A stretch of 64,000 nt of DNA from Octopus vulgaris (taxonomy: Eukaryota), in assembly GCA_951406725.2 (NCBI GenBank), contig OX597819.1, forward strand, positions 128,402,001 to 128,466,000. The letters are read 5' to 3'. Numbering within the stretch: the first letter of the stretch is position 1; each line of letters starts with the position of its first letter. Below are positions 11,585 through 61,638 of the stretch, in pieces. The translations under genes were made by a program, and so were the position numbers. The notes beneath the pieces are model-generated. The model saw only the letters and a list, made by a program, of their open reading frames with translations. It searched no databases and had not been told where the DNA came from.

Positions 11585-11715
11585 CCAACACACCGTCTCC
11601 GATGAAGGGATATAATTAATAAATACCCTGGAAACAGCTGTAAGACCGTCTATCTATAAATGTTCTAATATCTACACAGCCTTTGTCTTTTATCTCATTA
11701 CGCAAAAAATTCTTA
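11585..11715 (+). ncRNA. Penelope-like mini module with minimal hammerhead ribozyme motif (11595-11646)
   Basis: GTCT-CCGATGA-AGGGATAT..ATACCCT-G-GAAA-CAGCTG-TA-AGAC: stem I GTCT/AGAC, palindromic stem III, GUA site; flanked by (TA)n. Confidence 0.6.
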
Positions 11716-11749
11716 TATATACGTGTGTGTATATATATATATATATATT

Positions 11750-12060
11750 ACCTTGATCACTTTGACCGGCCAGTCCGACGGGCGTCCATTTGACACCGCT
11801 GGTCACAGCACGCTGTCCACTCCTCTCTGGATCGCGCCTTTCTCATCCACGTGATCCCAATCGTCCTCCTGAAATAGTAACTCCACCGTCGTGGAGGCCT
11901 TCCGAGTGGTCGTTTTCACTCGTGCGGATACCACTCGACAACTGCGTGTGTCCACCGATTATCGGTGAGCCGGGTGACGTGTTCAGCCCATCTAAACTTG
12001 CTGCGTGTATACTCTGCGATGACATCCCTCACGTCGGACTTCTTTCTGATGACCTCGCTA
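11750..12060 (-). mobile_element. RTE LINE 3' end
   Basis: Minus translation EVIRKKSDVRDVIAEYTRSKFRWAEHVTRLTDNRWTHAVVEWYPHE*KRPLGRPPRRW, the typical RTE C-terminus. Confidence 0.85.
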
Positions 12061-12069
12061 CTCGTGATC

Positions 12070-12190
12070 ATCGTAATCACATCGTAATCATCGCTGAAAC
12101 CACGGATCAGCTTCAGACCATGCTGACAGAGCTCGACATCAAAAGCTCTGCAGTAGGTCTCAAGATGAACCGCATGAAACGAAGTTCATG
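12070..12190 (+). mobile_element. RTE LINE RT fragment in opposite orientation to the adjacent 3' end
   Basis: HIVIIAETTDQLQTMLTELDIKSSAVGLKMNRMK matches the region following the (F/Y)ADD motif of RTE RT. Confidence 0.75.
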
Positions 12191-12566
12191 CGGTCAGAAG
12201 TTCATATATAAAATTGTATTTTCACATAATCAGCGACTTTTTATAACAGTTTTAGAGTAAAAATGTTAGCGCGTGTTTTCATAAAGTGAATTTCACACAT
12301 GCAAAAGAAAAAAAAGGAGTGTCATATTTTACTGAAAAGTGTTTATAACAGAAAAAAGTTTTCGTAAAAATTGTTTTTGAATTCAAAAGCAAAAAATATT
12401 TTGTACATTTTGTTAGAAGATGAAAAATTCTTGGGCCGATATATTATGTTTCTGGTTACCGATTATTCAGACGAATCGTTTGAATTGCCGGCAACGTGAA
12501 ACCCTGTAACGATTCAAGACGCTGCAATTTCTAATACAATACAATACACCCACTGGCACACAAACA

Positions 12567-12611
<45 letters not shown>

Positions 12612-13009
12612 GCATATATATGCATATGTGTGTGTATATGCATTCAAATATATACATGTATATCTACACATATAAATATACATACGCACATACATATATA
12701 TGTGTATGTGGTTCTGTGTGTATATGGCGTTGACTTTCTGTTTTTACGCGCCAGTTATGATTTGAGCGGTCTTGCATGATTACCTTTGTGAAAAGTGACA
12801 AATATCGAAGCATCCTGCCGTTTTCTACCATTATCTTATCAAACAACACGCCACACCTTAAGGAGAGGCCATGACCTATAATATGTTACGTATGTATCTG
12901 TCTGTTTTACCTGTATGTTTTTTTGTTTTTTTAATCATTCGCATCCTTCCAGCTGGTTTCTAACAATGAAACGAAGCCCAACTCTGGAATTTCGCTAACA
13001 ACAACGAAG

Positions 13010-13240
13010 AGTAATACTTGTCTTGACTTGACAGCATTCACCCGGGGTGGGTTGAGCTGGCTTCATTCATCCTCAATGCTGCATCTCTCACAAACGCCGA
13101 CCAAACCTGGCGATGTGAGGCTAACGACCGCGTGATCTCCAACCACTCCTTATTCCAGCGGCGAACGCCGTAGATATGGGATTGGGTTCCAGATCAGCCT
13201 TGACTGTCATCAGCCAGGTTTTTCGTTGTCCACCACATCC
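13010..13240 (-). mobile_element. RTE LINE 3' fragment
   Basis: Minus translation includes GGQRKTWLMTVKADLE and a W...ASHRQVW-like segment. Confidence 0.6.
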
Positions 13241-15764
13241 TTCAAATATTCCTCATGAAGAGTAATACGTTGAAGTTTAGAAAAATATTGTACGTATGTG
13301 GGAGAGCTTAGGACAACTTGGGTTTGTTGTTGTTGCTAGATAAATGTAAATCAAACCCATTTGATCATAGGGCTTTCTAGTCGTGACCAACCTGACTTTT
13401 TATGAGTATATAGGACTATTTTTCCTGACCTGCAGGATCCGCCCGTTTTTGCATTGACACAATTATGTTGCGCCAATCGACGCTCTGACATTGGTGGACG
13501 TCACCGTTAGCCTGGTCACGAACGCCTCCTTTCTGTCACGATAGTACCGGTGATCCAAAGTGGAATTGAGCTTAGAACGCAAACATCAGAACAGATATTA
13601 CAAGGACCCTTGTCCAACGATCTAACAATTCCACTAATCGACCATCCTGTATTTATTATATTTACCCTGAAAGGTTGAAAGGAAGAGATGACTACGGCTG
13701 GATGCAGTGGGTTGAAACAAATACCACAAGGCATTCTATCTGCTCCTCACAAGCTCCAGTTCTTGCTGCAGCGTGGTGTCTTGTGTTTCTCAATAACCCC
13801 GAGAGCTATGGCTGCGAAGCGCTAGTTCCTGATTGGGCCTCCCATGTTGAACAAGTCAAAGGATAGAGGCCAGATTAATATGACCCAACTCTCCCCAAAA
13901 GTAACATGTTTGCATAGGGCCAGCAATTCACTTAGAAAAAAAGCAAAGTTACTGAAGCATCGACAACAATTCAAAGCCAACAATACTTAAGATAGGAAAG
14001 TCTTCCTTCAAGGAAATATTAGACGTGGTGCAGGAAAATCCGATCCAGCGATCTTCTTGGAGAAAAGCGCAAAAGACATCCCTAGTCGAGAACAGTTGAT
14101 AAAACGCTGTCGATTGCTTATGCCTCATAAGAAGCGAAGGGCTTAAATAAGTAATAAGTCTATACAAATCTCTAACTGTTCTTCCAGTTGGTTGCCTACA
14201 ATGTAGACGGTGGTGATGGACGCGTTTATCCTGGTGTGTTTAAAATTTTATTACGTCAATAATATTGTTATTAAATGTTGAAGCAGCGAAGTGTTCAAAT
14301 CATTAGGACGTTGACAAGAATTCCACAGAGCATTCATTCTGATACTCTGCACTCAGAGTGCTAATATTACCGAGGTTTTGGTTTACATTCGTTCGGTGTA
14401 AGCAGGTAAAAAAAGTATTAATCCAAGGTGGCGACATGAAGGAAATATCAGAGAGTCAGGCATGATTCGTTGCAGTATCTCATCTGGATCTTCACGTGCT
14501 GACAGCAGCATCTGCAATATGAAGTTCATTGGCACGAATCGGCGGCCTTTCCCTTGAATAAACATTGGTACCATGGAGAGAGAGAAGAGTGAGATGCATA
14601 GCAACTGCCAACCTTCCTCAAAATCCCTTGCCTAGGTCTATGCATACATGTACAGTTGTACGGTCGACCCTGACAGATGAAAGCCCAGATATTGCAGTGT
14701 GCTTATATTTCAGTTTTAGATATGGTTTTTATAACATGATATTGCAGAAATATTTTTCTTTTGAAGCCCATTGCGTGTCACCTTAAAACACATAATGAGT
14801 TAGGGTTGGCATTTGTACCATATGGTCACCATTACTGATATAATTATTTAGTCTTTTATCAAAGATGCAGTCTTTAATCTGGTTGGTTGAACGAGCATAT
14901 AGGGATTTTCTCGCTGACCGAATTGATAGGATATCGAATTTCCTGGTATGAGTTCGATGTTTTGTATTTCATCGCTACCTGTGCGTTGAGTCTAATTGGG
15001 TACTAATAGCATCAGCAAATTAGCGCTAATTAGGTACTACAGCACCAGCACTGTAAAACTAATGTGTGTTTCCGATTTCCGAGTCAACAAAGAAGCTTCT
15101 ACCAGGTCTCTCACCGTGCTAGATATAGTGACCGAGTCCTCGATACATAAAATCATGGAACGGTTGCGGATGTGGAACACGGCCACTCGATCAAAGCTGA
15201 TCTGGGATTAAACTGCCACAATAATGATTTATGATTTAAACGCAAAGCCTGCAATTTTTAAGGGATGTGGGTTCGTTGACTTTATCAACCCCAATACTAA
15301 AATTAATACTTGATGAAAAACAAAATTGACATCGACGGGATTTTAATTCTGAATTTAAATAGCTGGAACAAATACCGTGAAGCATTATTTTTGGCAAACA
15401 ATTTCTTAACATTTAATTAAGCAATTCAGTGTGGAATATTTTTGGCTTATTTCTGTAATAAACTTGTCGAATAGTTGTTTTTTGGTATTGATTAGTCTTA
15501 AATGAGCATTGATCGCGCATGCCCATGAATAGAAGCGTTCCGGTGGTGATCATCATGCTGTTAAGTGGTTGTGGTAGACACACAGCTTATTTAAAACTGC
15601 ATTACTCTATATGTCCTAATTTTTAAGAAAGTAGAGTGGGATTTGAGGGAGATTTATACTATTTCTAGTTGGATGATCATCTACGTAGAGGTCCCTTTTG
15701 GCTCGTTTCGAAAAACAGATAAAAGAATGAGCAAATAACTGGATGGATAGAGAGACAAAACTGA

Positions 15765-15797
15765 CAGACAGACAGATAGATAGATGGATGGATGGAT

Positions 15798-15892
<95 letters not shown>

Positions 15893-15924
15893 GGATAGAT
15901 AGATAGATAGATGGATGGATGGAT

Positions 15925-15977
<53 letters not shown>

Positions 15978-15985
15978 CAGATAGA
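15765..15985. repeat. (GATA)n/(GATG)n microsatellite
   Basis: Direct reading. Confidence 0.95.
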
Positions 15986-16153
15986 TGTAATCGTCATGTA
16001 TGTAACAGAATAAAAACGGGAGATTGTTTATTACTATGGGTTTTCAATTGAAAAAAATGCTATAATTTTGTTGTATACCATTGTCTTCGAAGACAAAGAA
16101 CTTCAAAGCAAAAGGATGACAGTCGTGTACACACATACGTGCGCACACACGCG

Positions 16154-16213
<60 letters not shown>

Positions 16214-16545
16214 CGGTGACATTTCGAAATTAGACAAACAATTAAAATGAAAATAATTTCTAGCTTTAGATGTCTTTTAGAACATTAGAAATAAAAGAAA
16301 GTTTAGAGGAGAAAAAAGTCAAAGGTTGATAATTCAAAGTAAGAAAGTTTGTTATTTCAATAAATATTATTTCTGAAAGAGGAGAGAAAGAGGGAGAGAG
16401 GGAGTGACTGACGGACACACAGACAGACAGTTCCCTTTTGAGTTGAGTTTCGTCGGATGACAGAGATTTGTAAAGCCTTGAATATACTCTAAAATTATTG
16501 TATTTTGTGGTCCAACGCTTGATACGAAAGCAAAACAGTTTCTAG

Positions 16546-16900
16546 AATGTGACAGTCTTACACAGGACGATGTTACTTCTTAGCCCCAGGAAAATATCTT
16601 TTTCCAACTGGCTACCGACGCTTGGTCTGTGTCCGTATACTGTGAGCAAAGTCAGGGACTTAGAATTTGTGGTTTTTCTTTTTACGCGATCAACGACTGT
16701 GTGCCGCGATTGTCCTGTACCGCGGAAGGGAAATAACCCAGAGACCATTGGTCTACAGGTATCGCTAATACTTGAAAGGAAGCAATAAACTCCCTTGCTA
16801 TCACTATACGGACACAGACCATGTGTCGGTAGCCAGCTAGAAAAGATGTTTTCCTGGGGCTAAAAAGTAGTAACATCGTCCTGTGTAAGACTACCACATT
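16546..16900. mobile_element. Foldback/MITE-like element with ~100-bp imperfect terminal inverted repeats
   Basis: AATGTGACAGTCTTACACAGGACGATGTTAC...GCCCCAGGAAAA...GGTCTGTGTCCGTATA (16546-16648) is complementary to 16794-16900; ~145-bp spacer, no ORF. Confidence 0.8.
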
Positions 16901-16923
16901 GTGTTGGCAAATAGACTTGACAC

Positions 16924-16966
<43 letters not shown>

Positions 16967-17379
16967 ACATATAATGGTTCACACGCAAGTCATTTCTTCA
17001 TCAGCTATCAAATGTTGACAACTAGTTCGTCACATCCCGACCATAATCCCCTTTCAGAAGTACTCAACTACGTTGGTGATGCATGAGAATGTCCAGGTTA
17101 GTCGAGGGAAATTCTCATTTTTCGCTCATAATCAACAGAAATCCGGGAGCTAAGACCTTTAACAGTAAGACATGTAGGATTACCCAAAACCTTTCACCTT
17201 GTTGTCGGGGTTTAGTTTCCTTAATATCAGAGTGCATCGTCTCTACATTAGTATTTTTCAAAGCGACGGAATTTAGCTCTGAATACATCAAGGGAATTTG
17301 AACTCAGAACGTAGAGGCATACGAAATGCTGCCAAACATTTTGCCTGGCGTATTAACGATTCTGCCAGTTCACCGATTT

Positions 17380-17935
17380 TACAATAATAATGATGATGAT
17401 GATGATGGTGATAATAAATGCCCTGATGCAGTACCAGGCAGTGGCTATGCCCTGATGCAGTGCCAGGTAATGGCTTTCATAGCCTCTCAACTTAGCTGAT
17501 TAGAAGTGCTATCATGTATATGTTTTGTCTTCGTATAAAAGATGTTTGTCAGTTGCTTGACCGTAACCAGTTGAGTATGTTAGTAGCTGACGATATATGC
17601 ATCTCTGATCACGAGCAGAAGTAGCGGAGGAGCATCATAGCCATGTGTTGAGTGGAATTATTTGGGGTTTGAGTAATTCACCTCTGGAAACATGGGGACC
17701 TTTTGAGTGAGACGAGCTACTCGAACCGAAGAAAATTCTAACTGGGCCCCACCTGCAAGTTCATGCGCTGTTAATCTCGATATGTGAACACCATGTCGCG
17801 CACATATGGTTGTGATGCACGTGCCTGGTGCACCCTTATCAGACGAGTAGTCATGATGGGTATATTGGGCTTCGTTATTTGTACCCCAGTGTCACTTAGA
17901 TGGCATGCGCTGCTCTCTCACTCAATACTGATAAT
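17380..17935. mobile_element. Probable LINE-derived UTR remnant bounded by (AAT/GAT)n, with an internal 28-29-bp tandem duplication
   Basis: Flanked by trinucleotide runs; ATGCCCTGATGCAGTRCCAGGYARTGGCT duplicated at ~17419-17476; GC level above background. Confidence 0.4.
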
Positions 17936-18279
17936 AGTTTCAAGGCCATCGCTAGGCCAGCATTTTAGTGGGGAAGATGTTAAGCGATTACATCGATCTC
18001 GATGCTCAGCTGGTAGCTATTTATCGACGCTGAATAGGCGGAAAGCCAAATCGTACTCGGCAGAATTTCAACGCATAACGTATAGCACCGTAGCTAAATA
18101 CCCTAAAGTATTTTGTTCGATGACCTAACGATTTTGCCAATTTAATAATAATCACGACGTTGAGGACAGTACAAAAGTAAAACACAATAAAACAACAAAC
18201 AAGAAATGATCAGGTTTTTAGATCGAGTGGAAAGATAACAACAACAATAACATATAATTATTTCTAATTTAAGTACAGG

Positions 18280-19135
18280 TCAAGCGGCGAGCTCGGCAGA
18301 ATTTTTAGCATGTCGGGCAAAATGCTTAGAGGCATTTCGTCCGTCTCTATGTTCTGAGTTCAAATTCCGCCGAAGTCAACTTTGCCTTTCATCCAATCGG
18401 GAATTGATAAAATAAGTACCCTTCAAGCACTGAGGTCGATGTAATCGACTCCCCCTCTCGGAATTTCTGGCTCTGTGCCAAAATTTGAAACCAATATTGG
18501 TAAAAGTCCTGGGTTTGTTGATTAAATTGACACAGGTACTTGTTCGGAACCCTAAATTTATCGATCTTCGAGGAGTGAAAGACGAAGCTGATTTCGATAG
18601 GATTTGAACTCAGTATATTTAAAGCCGGAAGAAATATCACAAGGCATTTTGACCGACGAGCTAACAATTCTGCAATTCCATCACAACTTAAAAAGCCGTA
18701 AATAATTAGCTCTGATTTAAGCACAAAGCCAACAATTTTGAGGGGAAGGGGAGGAGAGTAATCAATAACACCGACCTCAGTACTGAACTAGTTCTTTATT
18801 TTATCGAATCCGAGTGGATGAAGAGCAAAGCTAATCTCGACGGGATTTGAATTTAGAAGATAAAATGCCGGGAGAATACTGCAAAATTATTTTCTTCTGA
18901 TGCCAAGAAACATAAATAATCTCCTGATGCCAAGAACAAAGCCAAACATTTTGCGGGTGGGGACTAAGTCGATTACATCGACCCCAGTACTCAACAAGTA
19001 CTTATTTTATCGACTCCTAATAGATGAAAGGCAAAGTTGACCACGGCGGAATCTAAACTCAGAAAGTAAAGACGGACAAAAAGCAGCTAAGCATTTTGTC
19101 CGGCATGCTAACTATTATGCAAACTTGTCGCGATT
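18280..19135. mobile_element. Cluster of four older Meta-domain-like SINE copies in both orientations
   Basis: Plus copy ~18280-18495; minus copies ~18530-18680, ~18715-18900 and ~18940-19135, all matching the SINE core with divergence. Confidence 0.75.
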
Positions 19136-19269
19136 TAAGAAGCATAAATAAAATTAAAAGAAAACAGAATAAGAACAATCACCATTAATAGTACCGACAA
19201 TAGTAGAATACCATCGCAAACATTCAAATGAAATCTTTGATGTTGTATACACCACTCTTCCAGCCATTA

Positions 19270-19710
19270 GATAAACCAATGAAATCTCAAAGCATTCGTC
19301 AATTTCCTCTGATTCCGAATTTTATCCAATGAAATTTCGGTCTATACAGAGATGATCTCTGTACAGTCGTTCAACTCACAAGAAATAACCACCAAATGCC
19401 CCCTCAAAGCACATCCTACCGATTTAAATGAAGAATACATTGGATGACGTACGTGGGAATGGGAGCATTAAATCTAGAAATATACACCGGATGGTCATGG
19501 CCGAAAAGTCTTTGATCATATGTTTGTTCAATCAGGGCTGAATCGGGTTTACACAACCACAATAACTATGACAACAGACCAATGAAATATGAAAAATTAA
19601 TAACATTTCCTGCTACCATCGCCACAACTATAATAGCGAGTCTATGTTCTGATTGGACAAATAGTTTAACGAAGAAAAAACTTTGAACTTAGTCGTCACC
19701 CAATAGAGAT
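19270..19710 (+). promoter_or_regulatory. Candidate promoter: cluster of CCAAT boxes and CRE half-sites
   Basis: CCAATGAAA at 19276, 19326 and 19579; ATTGG at 19439 and 19652; CCAAT at 19700; TGACGT at 19445; CGTCA at 19694; downstream strong donor CAG|GTAGGT at 20470. Confidence 0.4.
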
Positions 19711-19967
19711 TGTTTTAACATCAAACGCAAACGCTGACATACGAAACGTACACGCAACCAGACACAAATACATACATGCATACATACATACATGTATAAA
19801 AGTATATACTTACGTACGACCGTACATAAGACTATCGATATTAGTGGGTGGCTAAAGAGAATTTATAAAAGTGAAACCTATGTAAATGAGACGTAAATTT
19901 TTTGGTGGTGGAATGGAAGGTGGGGGTATACAGCTTGCAACAAAATCATGCCGCCGACAACGAAAAT

Positions 19968-20043
19968 GAAAGAAGAAGAAGAAGAAGAAGAAGAAGAAGA
20001 AGAAGAAGAAGAAGAAGAAGAAGAAGAAGAAGAAGAAGAAGAA
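19968..20043. repeat. (GAA)n microsatellite (second tract at 20708-20797)
   Basis: Direct reading; explains the poly-F and poly-R ORFs. Confidence 0.95.
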
Positions 20044-21095: not shown

Positions 21096-21167
<72 letters not shown>

Positions 21168-21312
21168 TATATACATACACATATGTACATACTTACACAT
21201 ATATGTATATGTACATATGTTTATGTATATATGCATATATATATTATGTATATTATTATATGATTGAACACCACACATCTATTTCCAAGTAAGTTTATCT
21301 TATATGTATATA

Positions 21313-21399
<87 letters not shown>

Positions 21400-21523: not shown

Positions 21524-21577
<54 letters not shown>

Positions 21578-22359: not shown

Positions 22360-22526
22360 GCCGGAGTAAACACATAAATGTGAAACAAGGTGGAAGAAAA
22401 GTACTCAAATGCCAGAGGTATTATTTAAAAGCAGCAGAAATTTAACAAAACTGTCCGACGAACGGGAACGTGAAACTCCGAGTAACAGGTTTTGTAAAAT
22501 TTCTGCTGCTTTTAAATAAAGTATAT

Positions 22527-22530: not shown

Positions 22531-22585
<55 letters not shown>

Positions 22586-22595: not shown

Positions 22596-22655
22596 TAGTA
22601 GTTAGGATTACTGGCTTTCACCCCAGCGGCCCGGGTTCGATTCCCGGTATGGGAA
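22596..22655 (+). pseudogene. 5'-truncated tRNA-Glu(UUC) pseudogene
   Basis: TAGTAGTTAGGATTACTGGCTTTCACCCCAGCGGCCCGGGTTCGATTCCCGGTATGGGAA matches metazoan tRNA-Glu(TTC) from the D-loop to the 3' acceptor strand; 5' acceptor strand absent; 11-bp direct repeats TATGCAACAAT at 22583-22593 and 22664-22674. Confidence 0.85.
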
Positions 22656-22794
22656 AGTATTACTATGCAACAATAATATATGTAAACAAACTTTATAGAA
22701 CAGCCATTTTATAGTGGCAAAACATCTTTCATTTTGTTTTCAGAAGCGTCGAATATGTATTGTATTGTACAGACGCGGTTATAGCCATGAAAAC

Positions 22795-22904
22795 AGCAGA
22801 AAGACTGGGTATCATTACACTTACAAGACGGAAAAAATTGTTGATGAACAGCCACGGAAACTTTTTTCCGTCTTATAAGAGTAATAATACACAATCTTTC
22901 TGCT
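22795..22904. repeat. 43-bp imperfect inverted repeat with a degenerate hammerhead-like loop
   Basis: 22795-22837 pairs with 22862-22904 with 5 mismatches; loop contains TTGATGA (22841-47) and GAAAC (22857-61). Confidence 0.8.
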
Positions 22905-23214
22905 CTGCATTCGAAATATTACCTTCTTTCCTGTACAAGATATATATATATATATATATATATGTAATTATTATTTGAAGGAATATAAATCCAAACTTAC
23001 AGGGAAAAAAATTCAATTTAGAAATACTAAATCAAATTTCACACAATATAATATATATATATATATAAAAAATTAGAAAAAACCACCTTTTATCAATTCA
23101 AAATGAACAATTAAATTACACCATCTAGAAAATTACATATAACAGAAATATTAAAATTAAAATAACAATAAAATATCAATGATTAAGTAAATTGCAAAAG
23201 AAAATAATTTTAAA

Positions 23215-33079: not shown

Positions 33080-33630
33080 GTATTTCGTCTGCCGTTACGT
33101 TCTGAGTTCAAATTCCGCCGAGGTCGACTTTGCCTTTCATTCTTTCGGGGTCGATAAATTAAGTGCCAGTTACGCACTGGGGTCGATATGATCGACTTAA
33201 TCTGTTTGTCTCTCCTTGTTTGTCCCCTCTGTGTTTAGCCCCTTGTGGGTAGTAAAGAATTAGGTATTTCGTCTGCCGCTACGTTCTGAGTTCAAATTCC
33301 GCCGATGTCGACTTTACCTTTCATCCTTTCGGGGTTTATAAAATAAGTACCAGTTACGCACTGGGGTCGATATGATCGACTTAATCCGTTTGTCTCTCCT
33401 TGTTTGTCCTCTCTGTGTTTAGCCCCTTGTGGGTAGTAATGAAATAGGTATTTCGTCTGCCACTACGTTCTGAGTTCAAATTCCGCCGACGTCGACTTTG
33501 CCTTTCATCCTTTCGGGGTCGATAAATTAAGTACCAGTTACGCACTAGAGTCTATATAATCGACTTAATCTGTTTGTCTGTCCTTGTTTGTCCCCTCTGT
33601 GTTTAGCCCCTTGTGGGTAGTAAAGAAATA
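33080..33630 (+). repeat. Tandem trimer of head-less 184-bp SINE units
   Basis: TATTTCGTCTGCC recurs at 33081, 33265 and 33449 (period 184); flanked by ATGTATGTGTGTGTAT at 33063-33078 and 33631-33646. Confidence 0.9.
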
Positions 33631-35212: not shown

Positions 35213-37248
35213 GGTATTTGTTTTGGTAGTTATGGCGTCGGTCTCAGTGTATACTCAGTGTACTCAGTGCCAGCGCTTACGCAGACAAATTTTAAAATTA
35301 TCAAAATCCCATTATGGAGTCAACGATACGACATGCCTACACAGTTTCGCAAAGGAACATAACAACCGAGCTGATGCAAGGCAATTCAGGCCTCTCCCTA
35401 AAGAGAAGATGGTCTGTGATTGGCGTAAACAAGAAAAGAAACTTCAGCAAACAGGAAGAATTAAACACCACCTTCGCAAACCGAAACCTAAATGGACGTA
35501 ACTTGAAAATGAGATAAAGACCTGGGTTTCAAATCAACGAAGCCAAGATATTTGCAGCGTCGGTGAAACAAATCATTTACGAAACCAAAGTAAGAGCGGC
35601 TGCAGGAGCTCATAATGATTTTTCTGGTGCTGCCAGGTGGTACTAAAGATTCATAAAACGAAACGGATTAGCCATGCGAACAAAAACAAAAATAGCACAC
35701 AAGAAAATAGCAGAGTATGAAATCAAAACTGGTGAGTTTCATCGATTTGCTTTAAATATCAGAAAAACAACAAATATTGAACTGGGACACATTGCAAATA
35801 TGGATAAAGCAGTCGTGAGGTTTCGTATACTGACCAATAAGTGTGTTGACGTGAAAGATAACAAAACTGTGACTATCAAAACCTGCGGTCGTGAGAAATG
35901 CCATTGTACATGTGCATTGGCCTGCACTGGTAACACCGAATTACCACCGTTGCTCATATTCAAACGGAAAACAATGCTGAAAGAAAATATTCCACCAGGT
36001 ATTATCATCCATGTTCACTCCAGATGATGGATGGATGAGGATGGAGTAAAATTCTGGTTAGAAACAATGGGGTCATGGTTTCTCGGTGGACTTCTCAAAA
36101 GCCATCGCTTGTTATGTTGAGTCAGTTCCGGGCTCGTGTAACAAAATCCATCAAGAGTAGAATAAACAGATTAAACATTCAACTGGCTGTAATACATGGA
36201 GATCAACTGCAACCTCTGGATTATCAATAAATCTTAATGACGATATGTGTAAAGAACAGAACAAATGGATAATATTCTAATCTGAGCAAACACCAACAGG
36301 CCGGATGAAGAAACTTACAACAGTTCAAGTTTACCAGTTGCTGGAAAATGCTTGGGGTCCAGTTAAAACAAAGACAATAGCAATTCTCTCGATGGTGCAG
36401 ATGATGGCTTTTTATGAGGATTCAGACACCTCTGACTCAGATGGCATTGATGATCCCGAGGAGGAGGGCATGGTTGAAGATACAGCGACAGTGAATTTGA
36501 TGAGCGTTACGTTATGATAAGTCAGTAATGGTTTTTGGTGGCGCTTTGAAAGTAATATATTAAAAATGGTTTTAACATTCTCACTTTTATCATACAAAAA
36601 TAGTTCATATTTTCTCGTGTTTTATACGTTTTAATAAATATAGGCAAAATATCTTTTTGCATTGTAAATATAATTCTTATCGTACTGTGTTGCTTGTGTT
36701 TACTGGCAGTTCATTATAATAAAATATGTATCACAATTCTCACAAATTTGTAGGAAAATAACTTAGATAATTAAGCAAACATATTCTAGTTACTAAGACT
36801 GCGAAACTACGGTAAATATTCAGCAGTACTCTTTCGTCATCGCAAGTTCTGATGATGCTACAACATCCAACCAAGCGATAGAGCGGTGTTAGTGGAAAAA
36901 ATAAAAAATGGATAAATTAGTAGAGATATTTAAAGAGAAGATTAAAATAACTCAAATATATATTCGTTCTGATAATTTCTCCAACGTGATTGGACTGGAG
37001 GACGTAATTGAATATATAACTGATAAGTAAATAGAACAATTACAAACTGTATAACAAAATGTATAAGGAACCGTAAAACGAAACTGCGAGTTTGGGGGAC
37101 TCGTAAGCCATCCCATTTCCCATTACACAGAACTCATCTCATATTCATTATTTGTTTTATGTACCCCAAATTTTGCAATGTTTGTATGTAATTGTAATGT
37201 CCACTCTATATTCAGGCTACATGCCTATAATAAAGAAAAAACCATGCT

Positions 37249-39771: not shown

Positions 39772-39938
39772 CATTCTCTCCTTTTTTCTCTCCTTGTTTT
39801 TTTTTTTCTGTGTCCTTTTCTGTAGAAGAGCGTAGGCTCGAAACGTAAAATACTTTTTCTATTCCTGAGCGTTATACTAATACATCTGTTTGTTTTGTAC
39901 AGCACCTGTCTTCGTCTTTTGTTTTTTTCGTAAACTCT

Positions 39939-39941
<3 letters not shown>
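39772..39941 (+). ncRNA. Penelope-like mini module with variant hammerhead motif (39816-39850)
   Basis: TTTT-CTGTAGA-A-GAGC-GTAG-GCTC-GAAA-CG-TA-AAA, followed by TTCCTGAGCGT... and ending in (TA)n; paralog at 61480-61640. Confidence 0.55.
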
Positions 39942-40021: not shown

Positions 40022-40190
40022 AAGAAAAAAAGGTAGAAATGCTAATATAATTTTATCATGAAGTACGTTTTGTAAAGGTTAGTACCGGCTTCAATCTTTT
40101 CGGCTTTTTCGACTAAAGATATAACAAGAAAAACAATTAAATTGAAGAAAGAATTAGATAAAATGTTTTATAAATATTTCCATAATCTTC
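40022..40190 (-). ncRNA. Degenerate minus-strand hammerhead-like module (40079-40116)
   Basis: Minus: TTAG-TCGAAAA-AGCC-GAAA-AGATT-GAAG-CCGG-TA-CTAA; stem I TTAG/CTAA, palindromic CCGG stem III, abuts (TA)n. Confidence 0.4.
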
Positions 40191-40456
40191 AGATGAACAG
40201 AAAATTTCCTTCTCTCTTTCTCTCTCTCTCTCCCCTCCTCCTCCTCCTTCTTTGTGAAGGCTCGGTAGGTAGTAGCAGAAATGAAGAAATAGTGTAACGT
40301 TTTGAACCATGAAGAATTTGTACCGGATTTTTGCAGAGTTTGAATTTTTTTTTAATCATTTGTTTGCAATTGTCTGATAATACAGACATAGACTTGCCCA
40401 AATGCATCAATAAATTAACATTGATATTTTTTCACCGTTGTTACAATCATCTGAAA

Positions 40457-41455
40457 TGGAACTCTCAAAGCGCGATATTCGAGCAATTTTGCTATTCAAC
40501 TTCAAAAAAGGATGTAAAGCAGCTGAAACGAAACGTTTGGTGAGGAAATGGTTTAAACGAATTCACAGTGGAGACCTGAACCTTGAAGATCGTGAGCGTA
40601 GTGGACGCCCATCTGTCATCGATGACGGTCAATTAAAGACCGTCATTAAGAAAGATCCACGTAAAACCACTTGTGAGCTGGCAAAAGAATTTCAAGTTAG
40701 CCAGAAAACTGCCAGCAACCATTTGCATGCGATCGGAAAATCAAGAAAGCTCGACAAATGGGTACCACACGATTTGAATGAAAATCAGAAAATGTGCAGG
40801 TATGAAATTTGCTCGATGAAAAGTGGATTCTGTACAATAATAGAAAACGTTCTTTGCAGTGATTGAACCAAAATGAAGTACCGAAAACCTTCTCTAAACC
40901 CGAGCTCTTCAAAAAGAAAATTATGGTGACTGTTTGGTGGTGTACCATTGGACTCACCCACTATAACTTCTTAAAACCCGGTAAAACTATTACTGCAGAA
41001 ACATATTACCATGAATTTGCCAAAATGAACGAAAAACTGCTACTTCTCCGTCGCAGACTGGTCGGCAGAAGAGGGTCAATCATTCTTCATGACAATGGTC
41101 GACCACACGTTTCACTAATGACGCTCCAGATTTTGAAGGAACTTAGCTATAAAGTTCTTCCCCACCCAGCTTATTCCCCAGATCTTTCTCTTACCGACTA
41201 CCACTTTTTCAAGCACCTTGATGGTTTCCTGTGAGAGGAGCTCAAAAATCAAACCGATGCTGAAAGTGCGTTGAAAGAGTTCATCAGCTCCAGAACTCCA
41301 GATTTTTATGCCACCAAAGTAAACAAAATCGTAACTCGTTAGCAAAAATATGTTGATTGTAATGGTGCTTACTTTGACGAATAAAATGTTCGCTCTGTTG
41401 AAATATGTTGTGATGAATTTCATGTTTCAAAACGTTGCTTACTTTTTACTCAGCC

Positions 41456-44721: not shown

Positions 44722-44987
44722 TCGATCCTCCTCCTAGATAAAGAGTCAGAGGTGCACAAATTAATTACAAAACTACCTATTTTGAAGTAATTGCTAACAT
44801 TCTAATGTCCGTACGATAGAGATTTTTTCTGGCATTCAGAAGTATGCATTTTTTTAAGTACTAGACATTAATAAGTTTGAAGAGTTTGCTGATTCGTTTC
44901 CCATACAACATGCAAACTCTCTAGAAAACTAGCATCCATATATTGTTGACTGTAAAAGCTTAGTGAACGAGCCAACCTCGTGAGTAC

Positions 44988-45160
44988 CGCCAGCGATTTT
45001 TTTCCTGTCTTCCCTTCTCGGGATCTTTCCTTCTCCTATGTTTCCGACGAAGAGCTCCGCTCGAAACGTTAAACCCTCCTTCTTCCCTTCTTTCCTGAGC
45101 GTCCAATAATACTTTATTTGTTCCACGTCCTCGCGTTGTTGTGTTTTCTTGTTTGGATTA

Positions 45161-45166
<6 letters not shown>
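44988..45166 (+). ncRNA. Penelope-like mini module with minimal hammerhead motif (45040-45074)
   Basis: GTTT-CCGACGA-A-GAGC-TCC-GCTC-GAAA-CG-TT-AAAC; followed by TTCCTGAGCGT as in the 39772 family; ends in (TA)n; interrupts the hAT remnant. Confidence 0.65.
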
Positions 45167-51070: not shown

Positions 51071-51116
<46 letters not shown>

Positions 51117-53372: not shown

Positions 53373-53416
<44 letters not shown>

Positions 53417-53593
53417 AAGGCAAAGTCGACCTCGGCGGAGTTCAAATTCCGCCGAGGTCGCCTTTGCCTTTCATCCTTTCGGGGTCGATAAATAAAGTAC
53501 CAGTTTCGCACTGGGGTCGATGTAATCGACTTAATCCCTTTGTCTGTCCTTGTTTGTCCCCTCTATGTTTAGCCCCTTGTGGGCAATAAAAAA

Positions 53594-53595
<2 letters not shown>
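53417..53595 (+). mobile_element. 5'-truncated Meta-like SINE with inverted 5' segment
   Basis: AAGGCAAAGTCGACCTCGGCGGA (53417-39) is the reverse complement of the following TCCGCCGAGGTCGCCTTTGCCTT. Confidence 0.8.
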
Positions 53596-53652
<57 letters not shown>

Positions 53653-53689
53653 TGTATGTATGTGTGTCTGTGTCTGTGTGTGTGTGTGT

Positions 53690-53920
53690 GAAGGCGTATG
53701 GCTCAGTGGTTAGAGCGTCGAGCTTACGATCGTGAGGTTGTGATCACTTAGATCTTTAGCGCTTTCTCCCATTCTAGTGGGGTTTTCAAATCTCCACTAG
53801 AATGGGAGAAAGCGCTAATAATCTAAGTGATATGATATATATATAAAAAATGTAATATATAAATAAATATCTGTAAATATAAACCATCCGATCTTCTGAG
53901 TACCTCATTTCTTCTAATAT
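53690..53920 (+). other. Truncated tRNA-like SINE head joined to a 38-bp hairpin module
   Basis: GGCGTATGGCTCAGTGGTTAGAGCGTCGAGCTTACGATCGTGAGGTTGTGA stops before the B box; 53743-53780 pairs with 53794-53831; short tail then (TA)n. Confidence 0.7.
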
Positions 53921-54926
53921 ATATATATATAAAATATACGACGGACATTTTTCATTTTCGGTCAACCAAATCTAATCACAACCCTTTGGTCGACCCGAGG
54001 CTATAAAAGAAGGCACCCAAGGTCCTACACAGTAGAATTGAACCCGGAACTATGTGTTAAGAAGCAAACTTCTTGCCACATAGTAACGCCTGTGCCTGTA
54101 AGTGAGAGTGTTTACCATAACTTCAGCTTAATCCATGCCTTATATACGAAATTGTACAGATGGAAACTGTGAAGGAATCTGAAGGGTAAATTCTACTTGT
54201 AATTCAAAATGGACAGCCTTATCCCATATCATATCACGCTGGTTCTGTCTGAGGATTATATTAAAGATACACATTTGTGTGGAATACTCATCTACTGTGA
54301 TAAGTGGGTAGTTCAGTTCAAGGAACAACTGGAATGGTCAGTGTTGAAACCGATAGAAGTCCATTTACTTTTGATCTATTCACACACTGCCGAACAAGTT
54401 AACAAGAGAACCTCTACGCGGTCGCTCAACTTGCATGACTTAGCAAACAAATCTCTCTCAAATTTCACCCTACTGTCTAAAAGAAAGGAGGGCCATGTTG
54501 GAAAATATGATTTTTGGTTTGTGAGATAATAAAGGTTTCGAATTTTGGCTCAAGGCCAGCAACTTCGGGGGAGGGGTAAGTCGTTTACACCGACCCCAGT
54601 GCTGCTCAACTGGTACTTATTTTATCGATCTCGAAAGGATGAAAGGCAAAGTCAGCCTCTGCCGTTTTGTGGCTGTTCCTGGCAAATAAGATGATTATAA
54701 AGGAGCTTCCCCGTCTGTTTGATAATAGTTGTTTATAGACCTTAATATCTAAAAAAATAGATACGAATAATTTTTCCCGTAAAGTTTCTTTAAAAATAAA
54801 ACGAGAAAAGGGAAATAACTCAAATAGACTAAGGATATAAATTTGAATAAAATAAACTTTAAAATTATGCTGAAGTAAATTCATGATACAGTTTCGATTC
54901 CGAATTGAAGCAACTACCCTACACTA

Positions 54927-55158
54927 AGGTGGCGAACTGGCAGAAACGTTAGCACGCCAGGCAAAATGCTTCGCGGTATTTCGTCTGCCGCTACGTTCTG
55001 AGTTCAAATTACCCCGAGACCGACTTTGCCTTTCATCCTTTCGGGGTCGATTAAATAAGTACCAGTTATGCACTGGGGTCGATATAATCGACTTAATCCG
55101 TTTGTCTGTCCTTGTTTGTCTCCTCTGTGTTTAGCCCCTTGTGGGCAGTAAAGAAATA
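54927..55158 (+). mobile_element. Meta-like SINE
   Basis: Colinear with 34979-35212. Confidence 0.85.
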
Positions 55159-55278
55159 TCTAACCTTTTATGAACTCAAATTCCTCAAGTTGTAAAGCAA
55201 GGGCAGAATGGACAATGCAGTTTCGAGGGGATTTAAAATAAATTCATTTCCTTTGTCTCTGATGTCGTTGAGAAAATC

Positions 55279-56200
55279 TATAATAATAATAATGAAATTA
55301 CTGTATACAGTGCTCAGGTGCACCACAACTTGTCAGAAAGTGCATATAAAGTACATGCAGTAATGTAGAAATGTCTGGAAAGTGAACATGCTTGTGTGTG
55401 TATGGAGGGAGAAAATCAAGTGTAGTGTTGGCGAATCTCAGGAAGCATGGAAGTCTTGAAGGATGCAATGCTCCGACAACTAACAACCGATGCCGGCAGT
55501 TTGTTCCACGCTTCAGCAACTCTCAGCGTGAAAAAATGTTTCCTGAAGTCATGGGAGCTGTGCTGTTTTCTTACTTTGTAAATATGTCCACGGGTGTTAG
55601 ATGGGTGGAGTTTGAAGAGGTGCTCAGTGTTATTGTTTGTGCGATGGTTGATAATTTTATGGGTGTCTGCCAGGTCAGCTGCCAGACGTCGGAGTTTCAA
55701 TGTGTCCATGCCCAGGGAAGTAAGGCGTTCAGGATATGGCAAATGCCTGATGGAGGGTATTCTTTTGGTTGCACGTCGCTGAACAGCTTCCAGACGATTG
55801 ATGTCCTGGGCAAGATAGGGGTTCCAGACCGGTGATGCAAATTCCAGGTGAGGTCTTACCATAGCTATATAAAGCCGCAGATAGATAGCCGGAGAGCGGC
55901 TCACAAAGGATTTGGTGAGTGATGCCAAGACACCCTCAGCCTTCTTGACAATTTTGGCGATGTGTTTTGTCCAACGCAAATCACTGTCGACAATAACACC
56001 CAGGTCACGTTCACTTGAAGATTTTTTGAGACTAGTGTTGTGGAGGGAGTAGGTGGACGCTGGGTTTCTCCTCCCAAAATGCATGGTGGTACATTTGTCC
56101 ACAGCCAGCTTGAGTTGCCAGTCCATGATCCACTGCTGCATTGTGTCCAGGTCTGCTTGCAATAGAGATCCATAGTGTACAGGATTTGACCTCTTTATTT
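55279..56200 (-). mobile_element. 5'-truncated CR1-group LINE with uninterrupted ORF2 C-terminus
   Basis: 248-aa open frame: DLDTMQQW..DWQLKLAVDKC, ERDLGV, LYIAMVRPHLEFASPVWNP, LEAVQRRATK, FFTLRVAEAWNKLP; short 3'UTR and (ATT)n tail. Confidence 0.92.
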
Positions 56201-56912
56201 AAATCACAACTTATTTGTTACTTCCTTCTACATCCTGGGTTCTTTGTACCCAGTGGAGAAGAACTAAAACATCTGAATCCACTACTCAACTACCAGCAAT
56301 CCCAACATAGATGCTTGTCGTGACCATGTAACATTAAAATTATCAACTTGTACTAAGACACTGAACATTATTAATTTACAAAACTTATGAATTAGAAGAG
56401 ATTAAATAAGTTTATCAATTAATTAACACTAATAAGCTAAAACACAAACTTCTTATTAATTCACTCCATTACTAATGAGTGAAGCTTAAGACACACTTTT
56501 CATAATACTTACTAAACCACAAAACATTACAGTTAAGCATCTAAAAAATTTTATTCAGATAAATTCAGTTCTCATACATGTAATTAAGTGTGGGCTAACA
56601 TACTTTAAAATGAGAAGAAAAGTACTGATGACAATATTTATGCCAAAGCAGAGAACTCCGAAATTTAAATTAATTAAAACTGAAATGAAGAAAAAAAAAC
56701 AGTAAAAATTTAGTTTGATCTTTGGTGCATACAATGACAACTCTTAGAACATTTCAAACTTATTACACCTCCTCAAGAAAACAAAGACTAATGAAGTAAT
56801 TGATTCTGATATTTGGTGAATATAGTAACAACTACTGACACGTTCCAAAATTATTAGACGTCCTTAGCAAGACAGATTTTTTAGAAAGACTTTTAGAGGA
56901 TGTAGTTTATTC

Positions 56913-57307
56913 CATATTTGATTTGAGAAAAGTAATTTTTGAACCTCTGTAAAATGTTTGTTGAAGTTTTGGAATATGTATATTCGAAATGTGTTTTGAA
57001 AATGTATTTTGAAATGTTGAGAAAGGTATTTTTGAAACTCTGTTTGCTGGAATTTTATGAAAAATATTCTGAAAATGTATTTAGAAATTCGGTGAAATAT
57101 ATTGTTCTGTGGAAAAAACTGACGAAAATGTAACCTCTCGATTCCGGGGATCGAGTGGACATTTACACCTCATTTGTAATTATCTATTCATAATTCATTA
57201 TTAATTTTTTATTTTTTCTTGTCTTGTCATTAGCTATTGTTATTTTAAGTTCTCCGGATGTGCTGTCCAATTCTATGTATAACCTTTATGGTGAATAAAA
57301 AAAAATC
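56913..57307 (+). mobile_element. Retroposed polyA-tailed fragment with 16-bp TSD
   Basis: AATAAA plus A-run at ~57294-57305; TSD AGGATGTAGTTTATTC at 56897-56912 and 57308-57323. Confidence 0.75.
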
Positions 57308-57711
57308 AGGATGTAGTTTATTCGATATGTTGATGGATTGACATGTATAGTTGTTCTAGGAGTCATGTCTATCCAAAACACGACTCGTGTTTTAAATAGA
57401 CATAACACCTAGAACAACTTCTCATAAAACATTTGTAAGAACACAATACCCATGTAATTCTTAAGTCTACCTTTTTCTTTATTAAGTTCTTATTTTTTTC
57501 TTATTGTACTACAGATAAGTACTCTTTGACAACTCTGATTCTTAAAATGAACTTATTGTCATTCTGTGCGAAACGATCTTTTAGCGAATTGAATAGATAT
57601 TTTATCCCATATTAACATCTAATTTACGCCATTTTACACCGGTATCAACGTTAGAGATCTTTTGGAAACTACTCCAATTAAAGGACGAATCCTCATTCAA
57701 CCCTTTTTATG

Positions 57712-57756
<45 letters not shown>

Positions 57757-58149
57757 AAGATAGGTATGTAGGTAGGTATGTAGGTAGGTAGGTAGGTAGG
57801 TAGGTAGGTAGGTAGGTAGGTAGGTAGGGGACTACGAAGGAGTCTCAGGGAGTAGCGTCCCTGCCTTCCTGAGCTAGTTTTCCACCACATTTCTTAAAAA
57901 TCGTGGTGGAGGCCTTGGTCACAGGATCACTCATGTCTAGAAACCGAGGTTGGGGGTAAACAAGGACATGCTCCCTGTAGAAAATCAAGCTCCCAAAAAG
58001 TTTCATGGTAGCAAAGAAGAATGGACACCAGCCAGCCCAAAGGTTGGAGTGGACTGCACCTTTCTACCTAGGTTGCTATGGCATTGAGGTAGATCCGGAT
58101 TTAAAACACTGGATGATGACGATGTTATCAACGTATATATATATGCTAA

Positions 58150-58211
<62 letters not shown>

Positions 58212-58380
58212 CATACATACATACATACATACATACATACATACATACACACATACTTACATACATACATACATATATATATATATATATGCATGTATGT
58301 ATGTATATTTATATATATATATATATATATATATCAACAATAACAATGATTCCCTTACTATTTACAAATATATATATATA

Positions 58381-59442
58381 CTAGCAGAGATACCCGGCGT
58401 TGCCCGGTTACATTCAGTTGAAGAATTAGACTTTTCTGTTATATTTTCTGTATGAACTGGGATATCTTTGTTTGGAATTTCATCAAAATTGCAGATGAGG
58501 GTTATTTCCCTCTTTACACACCCTAAAAAATTGTAATCGTGCCACATGGAAACCAAAAGACGAATGATCACAATAAGCAGTCAGTTACCCTTCCCTAGTC
58601 GTTACCACTCCCAACGTAGGATTCCTCACAATCCAGGTGACAGGCACAGCCGTAAGATGCATTATGAATCTATAGCAATTGGAAGGGCGTGACCCAACTG
58701 AAATCAACATTAACAACTTTGTGACGTGAGGGCTTAGGAGAAATTAAAGTGTTACCTCTGGAGTTTGCAAATGACCACTATACTGATACGTAACTGGACA
58801 GAATGAATTTAAAATCTATAAATGTCTTTGAATAACCAGTCACTCATCTGGGAAGGCCTTGTAATCAATGTTACCATCTGGGGACTATGTGTGACCGAGT
58901 GATAATAAAAAGACTGAAAGGAGGTCTGCAATCAAATAACTTTACTCAACACTTTGCAACTGAATCAGTGGAGATAAAGATGTCGCTCATTTACTTAACA
59001 ATTTATGCACCACAATGCAGAAATCAAAATCTAAATGTATGTCAAAGCAAACTGTTACACTGTTGTACCATTGAATTAGAAATAATGCCCAACTTTTATG
59101 CTCGGGTAACCCTACAGCTTCCAAGAGCACAACTGTATTCGTTTTTGCTTAGATAAAATGACAAAATTGTGGGTGTTAAGTCCACATGGAGGGGTCTTTC
59201 TAACTTTGTAAGAAGATGAAATTTTATAAATATTACTTCATTTGTGTCTAATATCTATGGTTAAAATTTCCTCAATAGCAAAAATATATGAATTGTCATG
59301 GAGGTTAGGGCCCTTATGCTTAGAATATAATTTCCAAATTTCCTAAAGATCCATTCAGTACTTTTGACCTAGTTTTGGATCATAAAAGAAATTACTAAAA
59401 TTTGGGAGTTAAGGCTCCCATTAGGGTGTTATATACATAAAT

Positions 59443-59447
<5 letters not shown>
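58381..59447 (-). mobile_element. Non-autonomous Helitron (different internal sequence)
   Basis: Minus 3' end: hairpin ACCGGGCAACGCCGGGT then ATCTCTGCTAG|T; putative TCTATAT 5' end near 59447. Confidence 0.65.
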
Positions 59448-59533
<86 letters not shown>

Positions 59534-59771
59534 TACACACACACACACAAAGATAAATTGATAGATACAACTGAGTGAGCAAACAAAAATATGAGACACG
59601 GCCTAGTACTTTTTATGTTGATAAGCCTAGTACTTATTCTATTAGTTTGTTCTTGTGAAACCAGTAAGTTTTGTGGATGTAAATAAATGAACAGCAGCTG
59701 TGAAGCAGTGATGAGGGCGAAACACAGACACAAAGACACACACATACACTTACATATATACATATATATAC

Positions 59772-60395
59772 GATTGATTTGAGCTCAGTTTCAAGGGATA
59801 GGTTGTAGGTGACGGTAGAGCCAAGATAGGTAAACTTCTCCACCTTCTGTAGTCTGTGGTCTCCGGAGCCTTGTTACTTGCAAGGGAGTCAATATCCTTG
59901 GTGAGCTCTGCTATAGATGGCACACTGTCAAGTTCACACATGACTGGCAAGATCTTGACACCCTCGATTGCAGCCTCAGCTACCGTGGTCTCTCGTGAGT
60001 AGAGATCCTGGTAGTACTCCATCCATCTATCCATTTGCTTGCTTTGGTCCTTGATGAGATCCCCAGTAGTTGATTTCAGAGGGGCTGACTTGGTTGCGGA
60101 TGGACTGAGGGCCTTCTTCAAACCGGCATACATCCCACGGGTGTCGCCACTGTCAGCAGCTGGCTGGATACTCTGACAGATTTCCTGCCAATACCTATTT
60201 GCACAGCGTCTGGCAGTCAGTTGGGTTTTATTCCTTGCCTTTCTGAGTTCTTCGAGTGACTTTATAGAAGAATCACTCTTGTATTACATCAGAGCTGCAC
60301 GCTTTGTTTCGATAACTGTTTCCAGCTCTGAGAGCCCAGCACTGAACAAAATCTGGGTTTTGCCTTTCTCTCATGCCGAAAGTATCTATTGATGT
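59772..60395 (-). mobile_element. RTE (BovB-like) LINE internal fragment
   Basis: TARRCANRYWQ, MYAGLKKAL.P..K.APLKS.TG..I.D...QM.RW.EYY.DLYS, KAP; then EKFTYLGSTVT..LSLE.EL after an internal deletion. Confidence 0.85.
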
Positions 60396-60404
60396 CGTAT
60401 ACAA

Positions 60405-61035
60405 AGCTTTCCTGACAGTAGACTTGAGCATTGATTGTTGCACTAGGTGGTAACAATATAAAGTGAATTACGCCTTTGCAATCGCACCAGATAGAGTAGA
60501 ACCTTTTTCCCATGAAGTTCCCTTCTCGGTTGTGGTCGAGCATTTTCCCTTTTACCAAGCCACTGTTTACGACGTTTAACATTTCGATAGAAAATCCATT
60601 TTTCGTCACAAGTCTATCGATAAAGGGTGAAATGAGTTTGCGAGAATGGAGAGAAGAGCAGATGTCAACTCGGTATTTGCGGTTGCTTTCGGACAATACC
60701 TGAGGCACCTATTTTCCAAGTTTAGGAATCTTTCCATGTTATTGAAGATGACGATGAACTGTTGTATGGTTTGAAGTAAGCTTTATTGCCAATTCTTCAA
60801 CTGATAATGACGGATTTTCTTCAAGTAATGCCTCATGGAGCTTATCATCAAACTCAACTGGACATCCTATTCGATCTTCATCTTCAATTTTGCAAACGAT
60901 CTCCTGCAAGTTCTTTCATTCAAGCACTTTCCCATAAACTGAGTGTATGTTTCGAGTCACTTCGGCTGCAAAGTTACCTTTATTGTACTCACAGAATTAT
61001 ATGTGCCTTAAATGCTCCTTGGATACTTCCATGTT
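60405..61035 (-). mobile_element. mariner transposase 5' half, decayed
   Basis: Minus translation includes ED..R.G, WVP-like PQVLSE..RKYRVDICSSL, LVT.E.W, SIWCDCKGVIHFILLPPSATINAQVYCQ. Confidence 0.8.
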
Positions 61036-61060
61036 GAAAGGGTTTTAATCAAAGCAATTT

Positions 61061-61420
61061 TAGGGTGTCCACGAAGTCTGGGTACATGGAATAAAATCAT
61101 AACATTAACAAATATAAGAAATAATAACTTTCCTTTTTTACTTTTGTTTAAATTAAATTTAAAAAATACTTTACTTTTCTAAATTTATATGTCATTTTTT
61201 CTACAGAAGAAAGAATCCCAGATCGAATGATGGATCTGTCTAAAGAAGAAAGAATCGAGTTAGTATTGTTAAGTGGACGAGAGGGATGGTCTTATCGCAA
61301 AATTGCGGAAGAATTTAATCTTCGACACCCTTATAGGTAACCTATTTTTTTACTGCCTTCGGGAAATTGATCAAGAAATTTAAAGAAACAGGCAGTGTTT
61401 TGGATAAACCCCGTACCAAG
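61061..61420 (+). mobile_element. Tc1/mariner-superfamily (DUF4817 HTH-type) left end
   Basis: AGGGTGTCC TIR-like start; MDLSKEERIELVLL...SYRKIAEEFNLRHP...KLIKKFKETGSVLDKPR. Confidence 0.7.
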
Positions 61421-61479
61421 TTACCACACATATATATATATATATATTTCTAGTTGCCATGATAGATTTTTAGCCACTA

Positions 61480-61638
61480 CACACATTTTTTTTCTCCTTG
61501 TTTTTTCTGTATCCCTTTCTGTAGAAGAGCGTAGGTTCGAAATGTAAATGATTTTTCTATTCCTGAGCGTTGTACTAATACTTCTGTTTGTTTTGTACAC
61601 CACCTGTCTTCGTCTTTTGTTTTTTAGGTGATCTCTCC

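Follow-up and report, generated by a model that had tools for sequence, protein, structure and literature searches.

Variant hammerhead ribozyme motifs at the 3' ends of truncated Penelope-like elements in the Octopus vulgaris genome

What are the short hammerhead-like modules that lie beside (TA)n tracts in one stretch of the Octopus vulgaris genome, and do their unusual catalytic cores still matter to the elements that carry them? The stretch, here called the window, comprises 64,000 nt of contig OX597819.1 (positions 128,402,001 to 128,466,000), and a first-pass annotation had placed seven such modules in it, which it took to be tiny Penelope-derived elements with non-canonical ribozyme cores. 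We propose that six of these modules are the 5'-truncated 3' ends of five families of coding Penelope-like elements (PLEs), and that their hammerheads are probably weakened, dependent on dimer formation and still under selection, a reading drawn from sequence to which we assign a probability of about 0.55.

Both strands of the window were scanned with a type-I hammerhead descriptor, written after the motifs had been seen, and 100 block-wise dinucleotide shuffles of the window served as the null. The motif was intact at 11595, 22451, 39816 and 45040, where the cores proved to be those reported (CCGAUGA, CCGACGA, CUGUAGA and CCGACGA, respectively). With the core set to C[CU]G[AU]NGA, these four matches compare with a shuffle mean of 0.17, and none of the 100 shuffles reached four; CCGAnGA alone gave three matches versus 0.02, and the canonical CUGANGA hammerhead gave none on either strand. 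The relaxed YYGWNRA core that had been recommended for such a search separates the window from its shuffles less sharply (4 matches vs 1.08, with 3 of 100 shuffles reaching 4). The sites at 61516 and 40079 fail the descriptor because of a broken palindrome and of GAAG instead of GAAA, respectively, and are decayed copies of true families. All six sites have the three-way junction, stems I and II, G12-A13-A14-A15.1, U16.1-H17 and the 3-8 pair, in decayed form at these last two. The seventh site, at 22841, forms no three-way hammerhead junction, and the sequence taken for a decayed core is antisense to a short interspersed element (SINE) with a tRNA-like head, at the middle of a fold-back copy; other copies of the SINE lack this "core". 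Hence the claim of seven sites reduces to six type-I minimal hammerheads from five repeat families. Chance matches within AT-rich repetitive DNA would explain 22841, and the loosest descriptor does find about one match per shuffled window, but the ratio of 4 to 0.17 with the tighter descriptor and the thousands of homologous copies, located at the expected place in PLE 3' untranslated regions (UTRs), leave this explanation with almost no probability, and for the six sites a chance origin is already refuted.

The 2.8-Gb assembly (227 contigs) was then searched, and the modules fell into five families that are scattered through it, namely A (45040), B (11595), C (22451), D (39816 and 61516) and E (40079). 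Walking upstream through longer copies of each family led in all five to a Penelope-like GIY-YIG open reading frame (ORF) on the same strand, which bears out the proposed Penelope origin. A PLE-type reverse transcriptase (RT) lies upstream in A, D and E, as found by tblastn to a 781-amino-acid ORF, while for B and C the endonuclease (EN) end alone was recovered. In family E the RT thumb and EN end lie approximately 450 nt upstream of the module (L153, L160), and in D an RT-EN ORF is present in four loci (L387, L388, L390, L391) with the EN motif some 0.9-1.1 kb upstream of the core, and the copies are collinear. Two family A loci (L383, L379) carry an RT-EN ORF, and the approximately 2.3 kb of CA-rich sequence between it and the module is collinear in the two, although the ORF match was absent in 4 of the 6 long family A loci fetched. 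For B, a GIY-YIG EN precedes the core by about 1.4 kb in L384, and for C a Hydra-type EN, UTR, hammerhead, tail and (TA)n follow one another uninterrupted in L409. The 3' UTRs of the coding elements are about 0.45-2.3 kb long. The complete layout, an inverted pseudo-long terminal repeat (pLTR), ORF, UTR, CCGAAGA hammerhead, tail and (TA)n, is seen in L217, which together with L221 represents another coding family with the core CCGAAGA, and the stubs in the window correspond to the last part of this layout.

The family assignments to clades rest on linker and zinc-finger motifs, compared with the definitions of Craig et al. (2021; PMC8557442). Families A and D have a CX4CxxC linker and a CxxC..H..H (CCHH-type) EN, which are of the Neptune/Nematis type, and E was assigned the same linker and CCHH motif through an intact relative that is 47-58% identical. 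The linker of B and C, with its CxxC and CxH motifs, is of the Hydra type. Hence, by these motifs, A, D and E are classed as Neptune/Nematis-type and B and C as Hydra-type. A young PLE family was also encountered (L211, L212, L230 and many other matches), with an upstream ORF and an open 781-codon RT-EN frame that matches RVT_1 and GIY-YIG. It has a U3-A8 hammerhead with the core UUGAUAA about 870 nt after the stop codon, and is an apparently intact candidate for an active element.

Each family is therefore the 3' end of a coding element, most copies of which are truncated, and the description of the modules as tiny elements does not stand. The alternative, that they are independent non-autonomous elements (SINE- or retrozyme-like) amplifying as units of 130-200 nt, draws on the clustering of 5' ends 96-111 nt ahead of the cut site in family A (14 of 30 copies) and 89-98 nt ahead of it in family D (9 of 46), and on the majority of C copies, which begin near stem I. 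The 5' ends are otherwise spread, however, all five families extend upstream into a coding element, no non-coding head-to-tail arrays of units such as define retrozymes occur among the best matches, and no promoter was seen, though none was searched for; we regard this alternative as improbable. A start of family C at its own stem I was considered and rejected as an artefact of query bias, as copies ordered by position extend upstream. Likewise, the notion that a single element carries both the E and the A ribozyme was discarded, since their junction occurs in 1 of 40 scored matches and reflects a nested insertion.

Copies were counted with patterns in which the flanks were fixed and the seven core letters left free, so that exact matches are a lower bound. 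Such matches numbered 11,827 for A, 17,642 for D, 1,767 for C and 407 for one B subfamily, with none for the control patterns, and 13 for E, which is an older family. Together they amount to 31,656 in 2.8 Gb, or at least about one per 88 kb, and the earlier figure of one per 10 kb applies only locally. In 20 arbitrary 10-kb stretches we found three hammerhead-spanning D-like copies and two fragments, and the strict descriptor returned one A6U motif and no U4C motif; given these densities, the window is richer than the genome average. Words of family A are present at 58-83% in two other organisms, so that the family is common to relatives.

The 3' ends of the copies are fixed and the 5' ends variable, inverted copies are common, and families B and E have tail extensions. 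A (TA)n tract follows the stub in 26 of 30 copies of A, 23 of 29 of B, 26 of 30 of C and 23 of 30 of D, far above the background of 1.7%, and family E lies at (TA)n by inspection only. The suggested TA targeting is thereby upheld, with the proviso that the modules adjoin (TA)n at the 3' end and often have other sequence on the 5' side. The distance from 5' end to cut site clusters at family-specific values, approximately 105 nt in A, 62 and 93 in D, 150 in E and 260 in B. The coordinates of the stubs and hammerheads are given in Table 1, and the module size of 130-180 nt that had been proposed does not extend to all of them, as the stub at 40079 shows.

Table 1. Hammerhead-bearing PLE stubs, and one hammerhead-free repeat, in the window
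Feature	Positions	Strand	Remarks
Family B stub, 5'-truncated 3' end of Hydra-type PLE, then (TA)n	11589..11712	+	
Family B type-I minimal hammerhead	11595..11646	+	core CCGAUGA (U4C); 8-nt palindromic stem III; predicted cut after 11642
Family C inverted copy of own 3' tail	22360..22441	-	typical Penelope inverted insertion
Family C forward stub, ends at (TA)n	22442..22522	+	hammerhead 22451-22488; core CCGACGA (U4C); predicted cut after 22484
Fold-back copy of tRNA-headed SINE body, no hammerhead	22775..22940		22841 "core" = antisense centre
Family D stub, Neptune/Nematis-type, ends at (TA)n	39782..39941	+	hammerhead 39817-39850; core CUGUAGA (A6U); predicted cut after 39847
Family E stub, Neptune/Nematis-type	40030..40293	-	decayed hammerhead 40079-40116; family core UUGAAAA (U3-A8), C4 here private
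Family A stub, Neptune/Nematis-type, sister of D, ends at (TA)n	44975..45164	+	hammerhead 45040-45074; core CCGACGA (U4C); predicted cut after 45070
Second, decayed family D stub	61450..61640	+	hammerhead 61516-61549; core CUGUAGA

The cores were counted by hand in the first 100 matches listed for each of families A to D, and the counts agree with the idea that the non-canonical cores are family-wide, with U4C in A, B and C, A6U in D and U3-A8 in E. Per 100 copies, family B has C4 in 88, T4 in 11 and A5 in 14, and family C has C4 in 86, T4 in 11 and A5 in 11. Because T4 and A5 are about equally frequent, the pattern of symmetric CpG decay of CCGA, the masters of B and C were CCGA, with their canonical copies as decay products. 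In family A, C4 is found in 74, T4 in 24 and A5 in 4, with 20 of 100 copies fully canonical, and an alignment of 10 canonical with 10 CCGA copies revealed distinct tail variants, indicating that A has both a canonical branch and a U4C branch. A6U is nearly fixed in D (U6 in 96 of 100), where the canonical A6 occurs twice, both times in a divergent branch. Positions 3, 4, 5, 6, 8 and 9 of D are 99, 97, 97, 96 (U), 96 and 100% constant, and N7 is U in 42, A in 25, C in 23 and G in 10. The core of E is UUGAAAA, that is, U3-A8 alone, with C4 in none of the 13 exact-flank matches, so the double variant UCGAAAA at 40079 combines the family's U3-A8 with a U4C private to that copy. A standard CUGAnGA search would accordingly miss the masters of B, C and D, as had been predicted, but not A, with its canonical subfamily, nor E, since U3-A8 is published. 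The prevailing core is U4C in three families and in one further coding element (L217). Among 1.68 Mb of fetched sequence, which was heavily selected, 20 clusters of at least two motifs have CUGA, CCGA, CUGU or UUGAnAA cores, and across these approximately 20 clusters the stems keep pairing despite their differences in sequence, as was first noted in the window; the outer stem I pair, for example, is G-C in A and C-G in its sister D. The palindromic stem III was likewise supported. Restoration of CUGA by C-to-U editing was considered and set aside, since T at position 4 reached about 6-26% in four contig sets, merely guessed to be RNA, and did not exceed the genomic 24 of 100.

Is the variant core then maintained? 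We built a tree of 59 D copies without using the core (two overlapping L445 rows were dropped) and counted changes on it. N7 changes nine times, position 6 three times and the other core positions zero to one time each, while the free columns average 3.4 changes (102 columns). As N7 is the position that hammerheads leave free, the pattern suggests selection on the A6U core of D.

Several observations weigh against our proposal, at this point and others. With polymorphism of 10% or more in 40% of the free columns, six quiet core columns would arise by chance with a probability of ~0.6^6, or about 0.05. In addition, a pattern that fixes the core was used to pick 20 of the 59 copies in the tree; the selection signal is hence modest and only suggestive. 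An Rfam scan of 44990-45150 and 22400-22520 alone returned no hammerhead family at E<=10, and for the whole window no hammerhead is among the best 150 of 407 Rfam matches, in which microsatellite matches dominate. The minimum-free-energy (MFE) folds of the monomers are not the hammerhead fold. Pairwise mutagenesis reported in PMC9901934 gave low activity for every mutant of the CUGA-turn region, whether single or double, except the 3-8 swap, and PLE minimal hammerheads are described as weak cleavers even when canonical (PMC4209133). Of 134 incidental copies, none has its 5' end precisely at the predicted cut site and no more than 4 have it within 5 nt; the majority run on through the motif, which implies that the templates were uncleaved at the predicted site or re-ligated. 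Such read-through is as compatible with a slow ribozyme as with a dead one.

Alternatively, the hammerhead may be dispensable, with U4C and A6U as mutations of no or slightly deleterious effect that were carried along by a few master elements. Variant cores do belong to the families that are most abundant here, the tree test is only suggestive, and Naiads are described as spreading without canonical hammerheads (PMC8557442). This explanation must contend, however, with the occurrence of U4C in families A, B and C and in that of L217, which span two EN types, with the fact that other disruptive core changes are never family-wide among the clusters found, and with N7, which differs among D subfamilies while its neighbours remain constant. 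We think it unlikely. A slightly stronger, though still doubtful, alternative accepts the same PLE stubs but holds that the variant hammerhead does not cleave and that its fold is retained as a signal for protein recognition or template priming by the RT. It would account for the conservation of core and stems in spite of U4C and A6U, which are expected to lower activity, and for the copies that read through the cut site, and it accords with the poor cleavage of PLE minimal hammerheads in general (PMC4209133). On the other side, the conserved set (C3, G5, G8 and A9, with N7 free and H17 rarely G) is the catalytic pattern, and weakly active natural U4C and A6C cores have been described (PMC3088659): a natural U4C core reduces activity in vitro but leaves the viroid infectious, and A6C shows weak activity (<0.1 per minute).

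Returning to weakened but selected ribozymes, we offer tentatively the more specific suggestion that A6U and U4C hammerheads may be active and under selection, and may have been repeatedly detuned by PLEs so that most transcripts keep the 3' tail; we hold this with somewhat less than even confidence. From known PLE biology, the element endonuclease would nick (TA)n and the RT would copy the RNA from its 3' end, usually stopping after 100-300 nt to leave stubs, with inversion frequent during insertion. Two hammerheads in tandem or inverted transcripts could join by pairing of their palindromic stems III and undergo slow cleavage. A slow core would leave most transcripts with the 3' tail that insertion requires and let a minority be processed. 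The palindromic stem III means that two motifs could form the dimer described for PLE hammerheads, and the predicted free energy of its self-duplex is -11.1 kcal/mol for B, -7.8 for C and -1.7 for A and D. Downstream of the cut site, families A (45095-45103) and D (39864-39872) have a conserved CCUGAGCG that is able to base-pair with the stem II 3' strand. This pairing, predicted in the MFE fold for A, would compete with the hammerhead fold and is a possible off-switch.

These families represent a natural experiment on the role of hammerheads in PLEs, in which sister subfamilies with canonical and variant cores (CUGA and CCGA in A, rare A6 and common U6 in D) were both amplified, and whose motifs, RNAs of 35-50 nt, are suited to side-by-side assay. 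Cleavage by A6U would mean that a core base regarded as essential can be replaced in nature, and would call for broader search descriptors, whereas a failure to cleave would mean that the fold is retained for something other than cutting. Should the detuned, active ribozymes be real, the consensus of the catalytic core would be wider, and CUGANGA searches would undercount PLE hammerheads by tens of thousands in this genome.

Other repeats in the window are of separate interest. The relatives of 22841 form a SINE with a tRNA-like head, whose A and B boxes were identified by eye. It spans 22693-22940 in the window, is found in L166-L190, and often inserts as fold-back inverted copies beside (TA)n, like the PLE stubs; it was possibly mobilised by a Penelope-like RT. 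A tRNA-Glu-like fragment at approximately 22610-22657 shows anticodon and T arms by eye, and ARAGORN found no tRNA gene in the window. Tandem repeats with a 184-bp period lie at 8597-8976 (2.1 copies) and 33080-33630 (3.0 copies), both apparently one SINE-like unit in opposite orientations. Decayed frames of Tc1/mariner- and pogo-like transposases and of long interspersed element (LINE) RTs, identified by eye from ORF translations, occur at 10121-10857, 40414-41234, 35214-36027, 55416-56198 and 59750-60283.

The element architecture itself is already known, and the PLE minimal hammerhead, palindromic helix III, extra base after A9, U3-A8, solo truncated copies, inverted pLTRs and TA targeting are all published. 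We found no published family-wide U4C or A6U core in PLEs, in a literature search that did not include Lunse et al. and some supplements. The PLE minimal hammerheads of Cervera and de la Pena (2014; PMC4209133) are, like those here, of type I with a short helix I, an unpaired nucleotide after A9 and a palindromic helix III, and they also occur in thousands of single copies ascribed to truncated PLEs, in opposite-strand pairs and with U3-A8. Their consensus is CUGANGAH, with no U4C or A6U family and no octopus in the rows examined. Small PLE hammerhead variants are reported to cleave as dimers (Lunse, Weinberg and Breaker, RNA Biol 14:1499, as summarised in PMC6765202). The EN-containing PLEs of Craig et al. 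(2021) share with ours a C-terminal GIY-YIG domain, (TA)n targets, inverted pLTR copies and tails. Their Neptune/Nematis definition (a CX2-5CxxC linker plus CCHH) is matched by A and D, and by E via its intact relative, and their Hydra linker, together with the CxxC and CxH motifs on either side of E and N, by B and C. In the copies read here, Y or F replaces the second Cys of CxCX5C. As described there, canonical hammerheads are universal in Hydra and other PLEs with a C-terminal EN, whereas two Hydra-type families here are U4C.

Metazoan non-LTR retrozymes (PMC7229834; bioRxiv 10.64898/2026.07.22.740005) have the type I hammerhead and the Penelope connection in common with our modules, but are described as non-coding tandem units, while the modules are dispersed ends of coding elements. 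One array of the former kind was observed at L121:2300-4550, in which units of ~353-359 nt, five forward and two inverted, carry a canonical CUGACGA type I hammerhead and are non-LTR retrozyme-like. Finally, U4C (viroid), A6C (phage Bcep176) and U3-A8 are known as natural core variants that are active, though weakly so (Perreault et al., 2011; PMC3088659). Those variants are rare single cases, and A6U is absent from the main text of that study, whereas here the variants are nearly fixed in families of hundreds to more than 17,000 copies.

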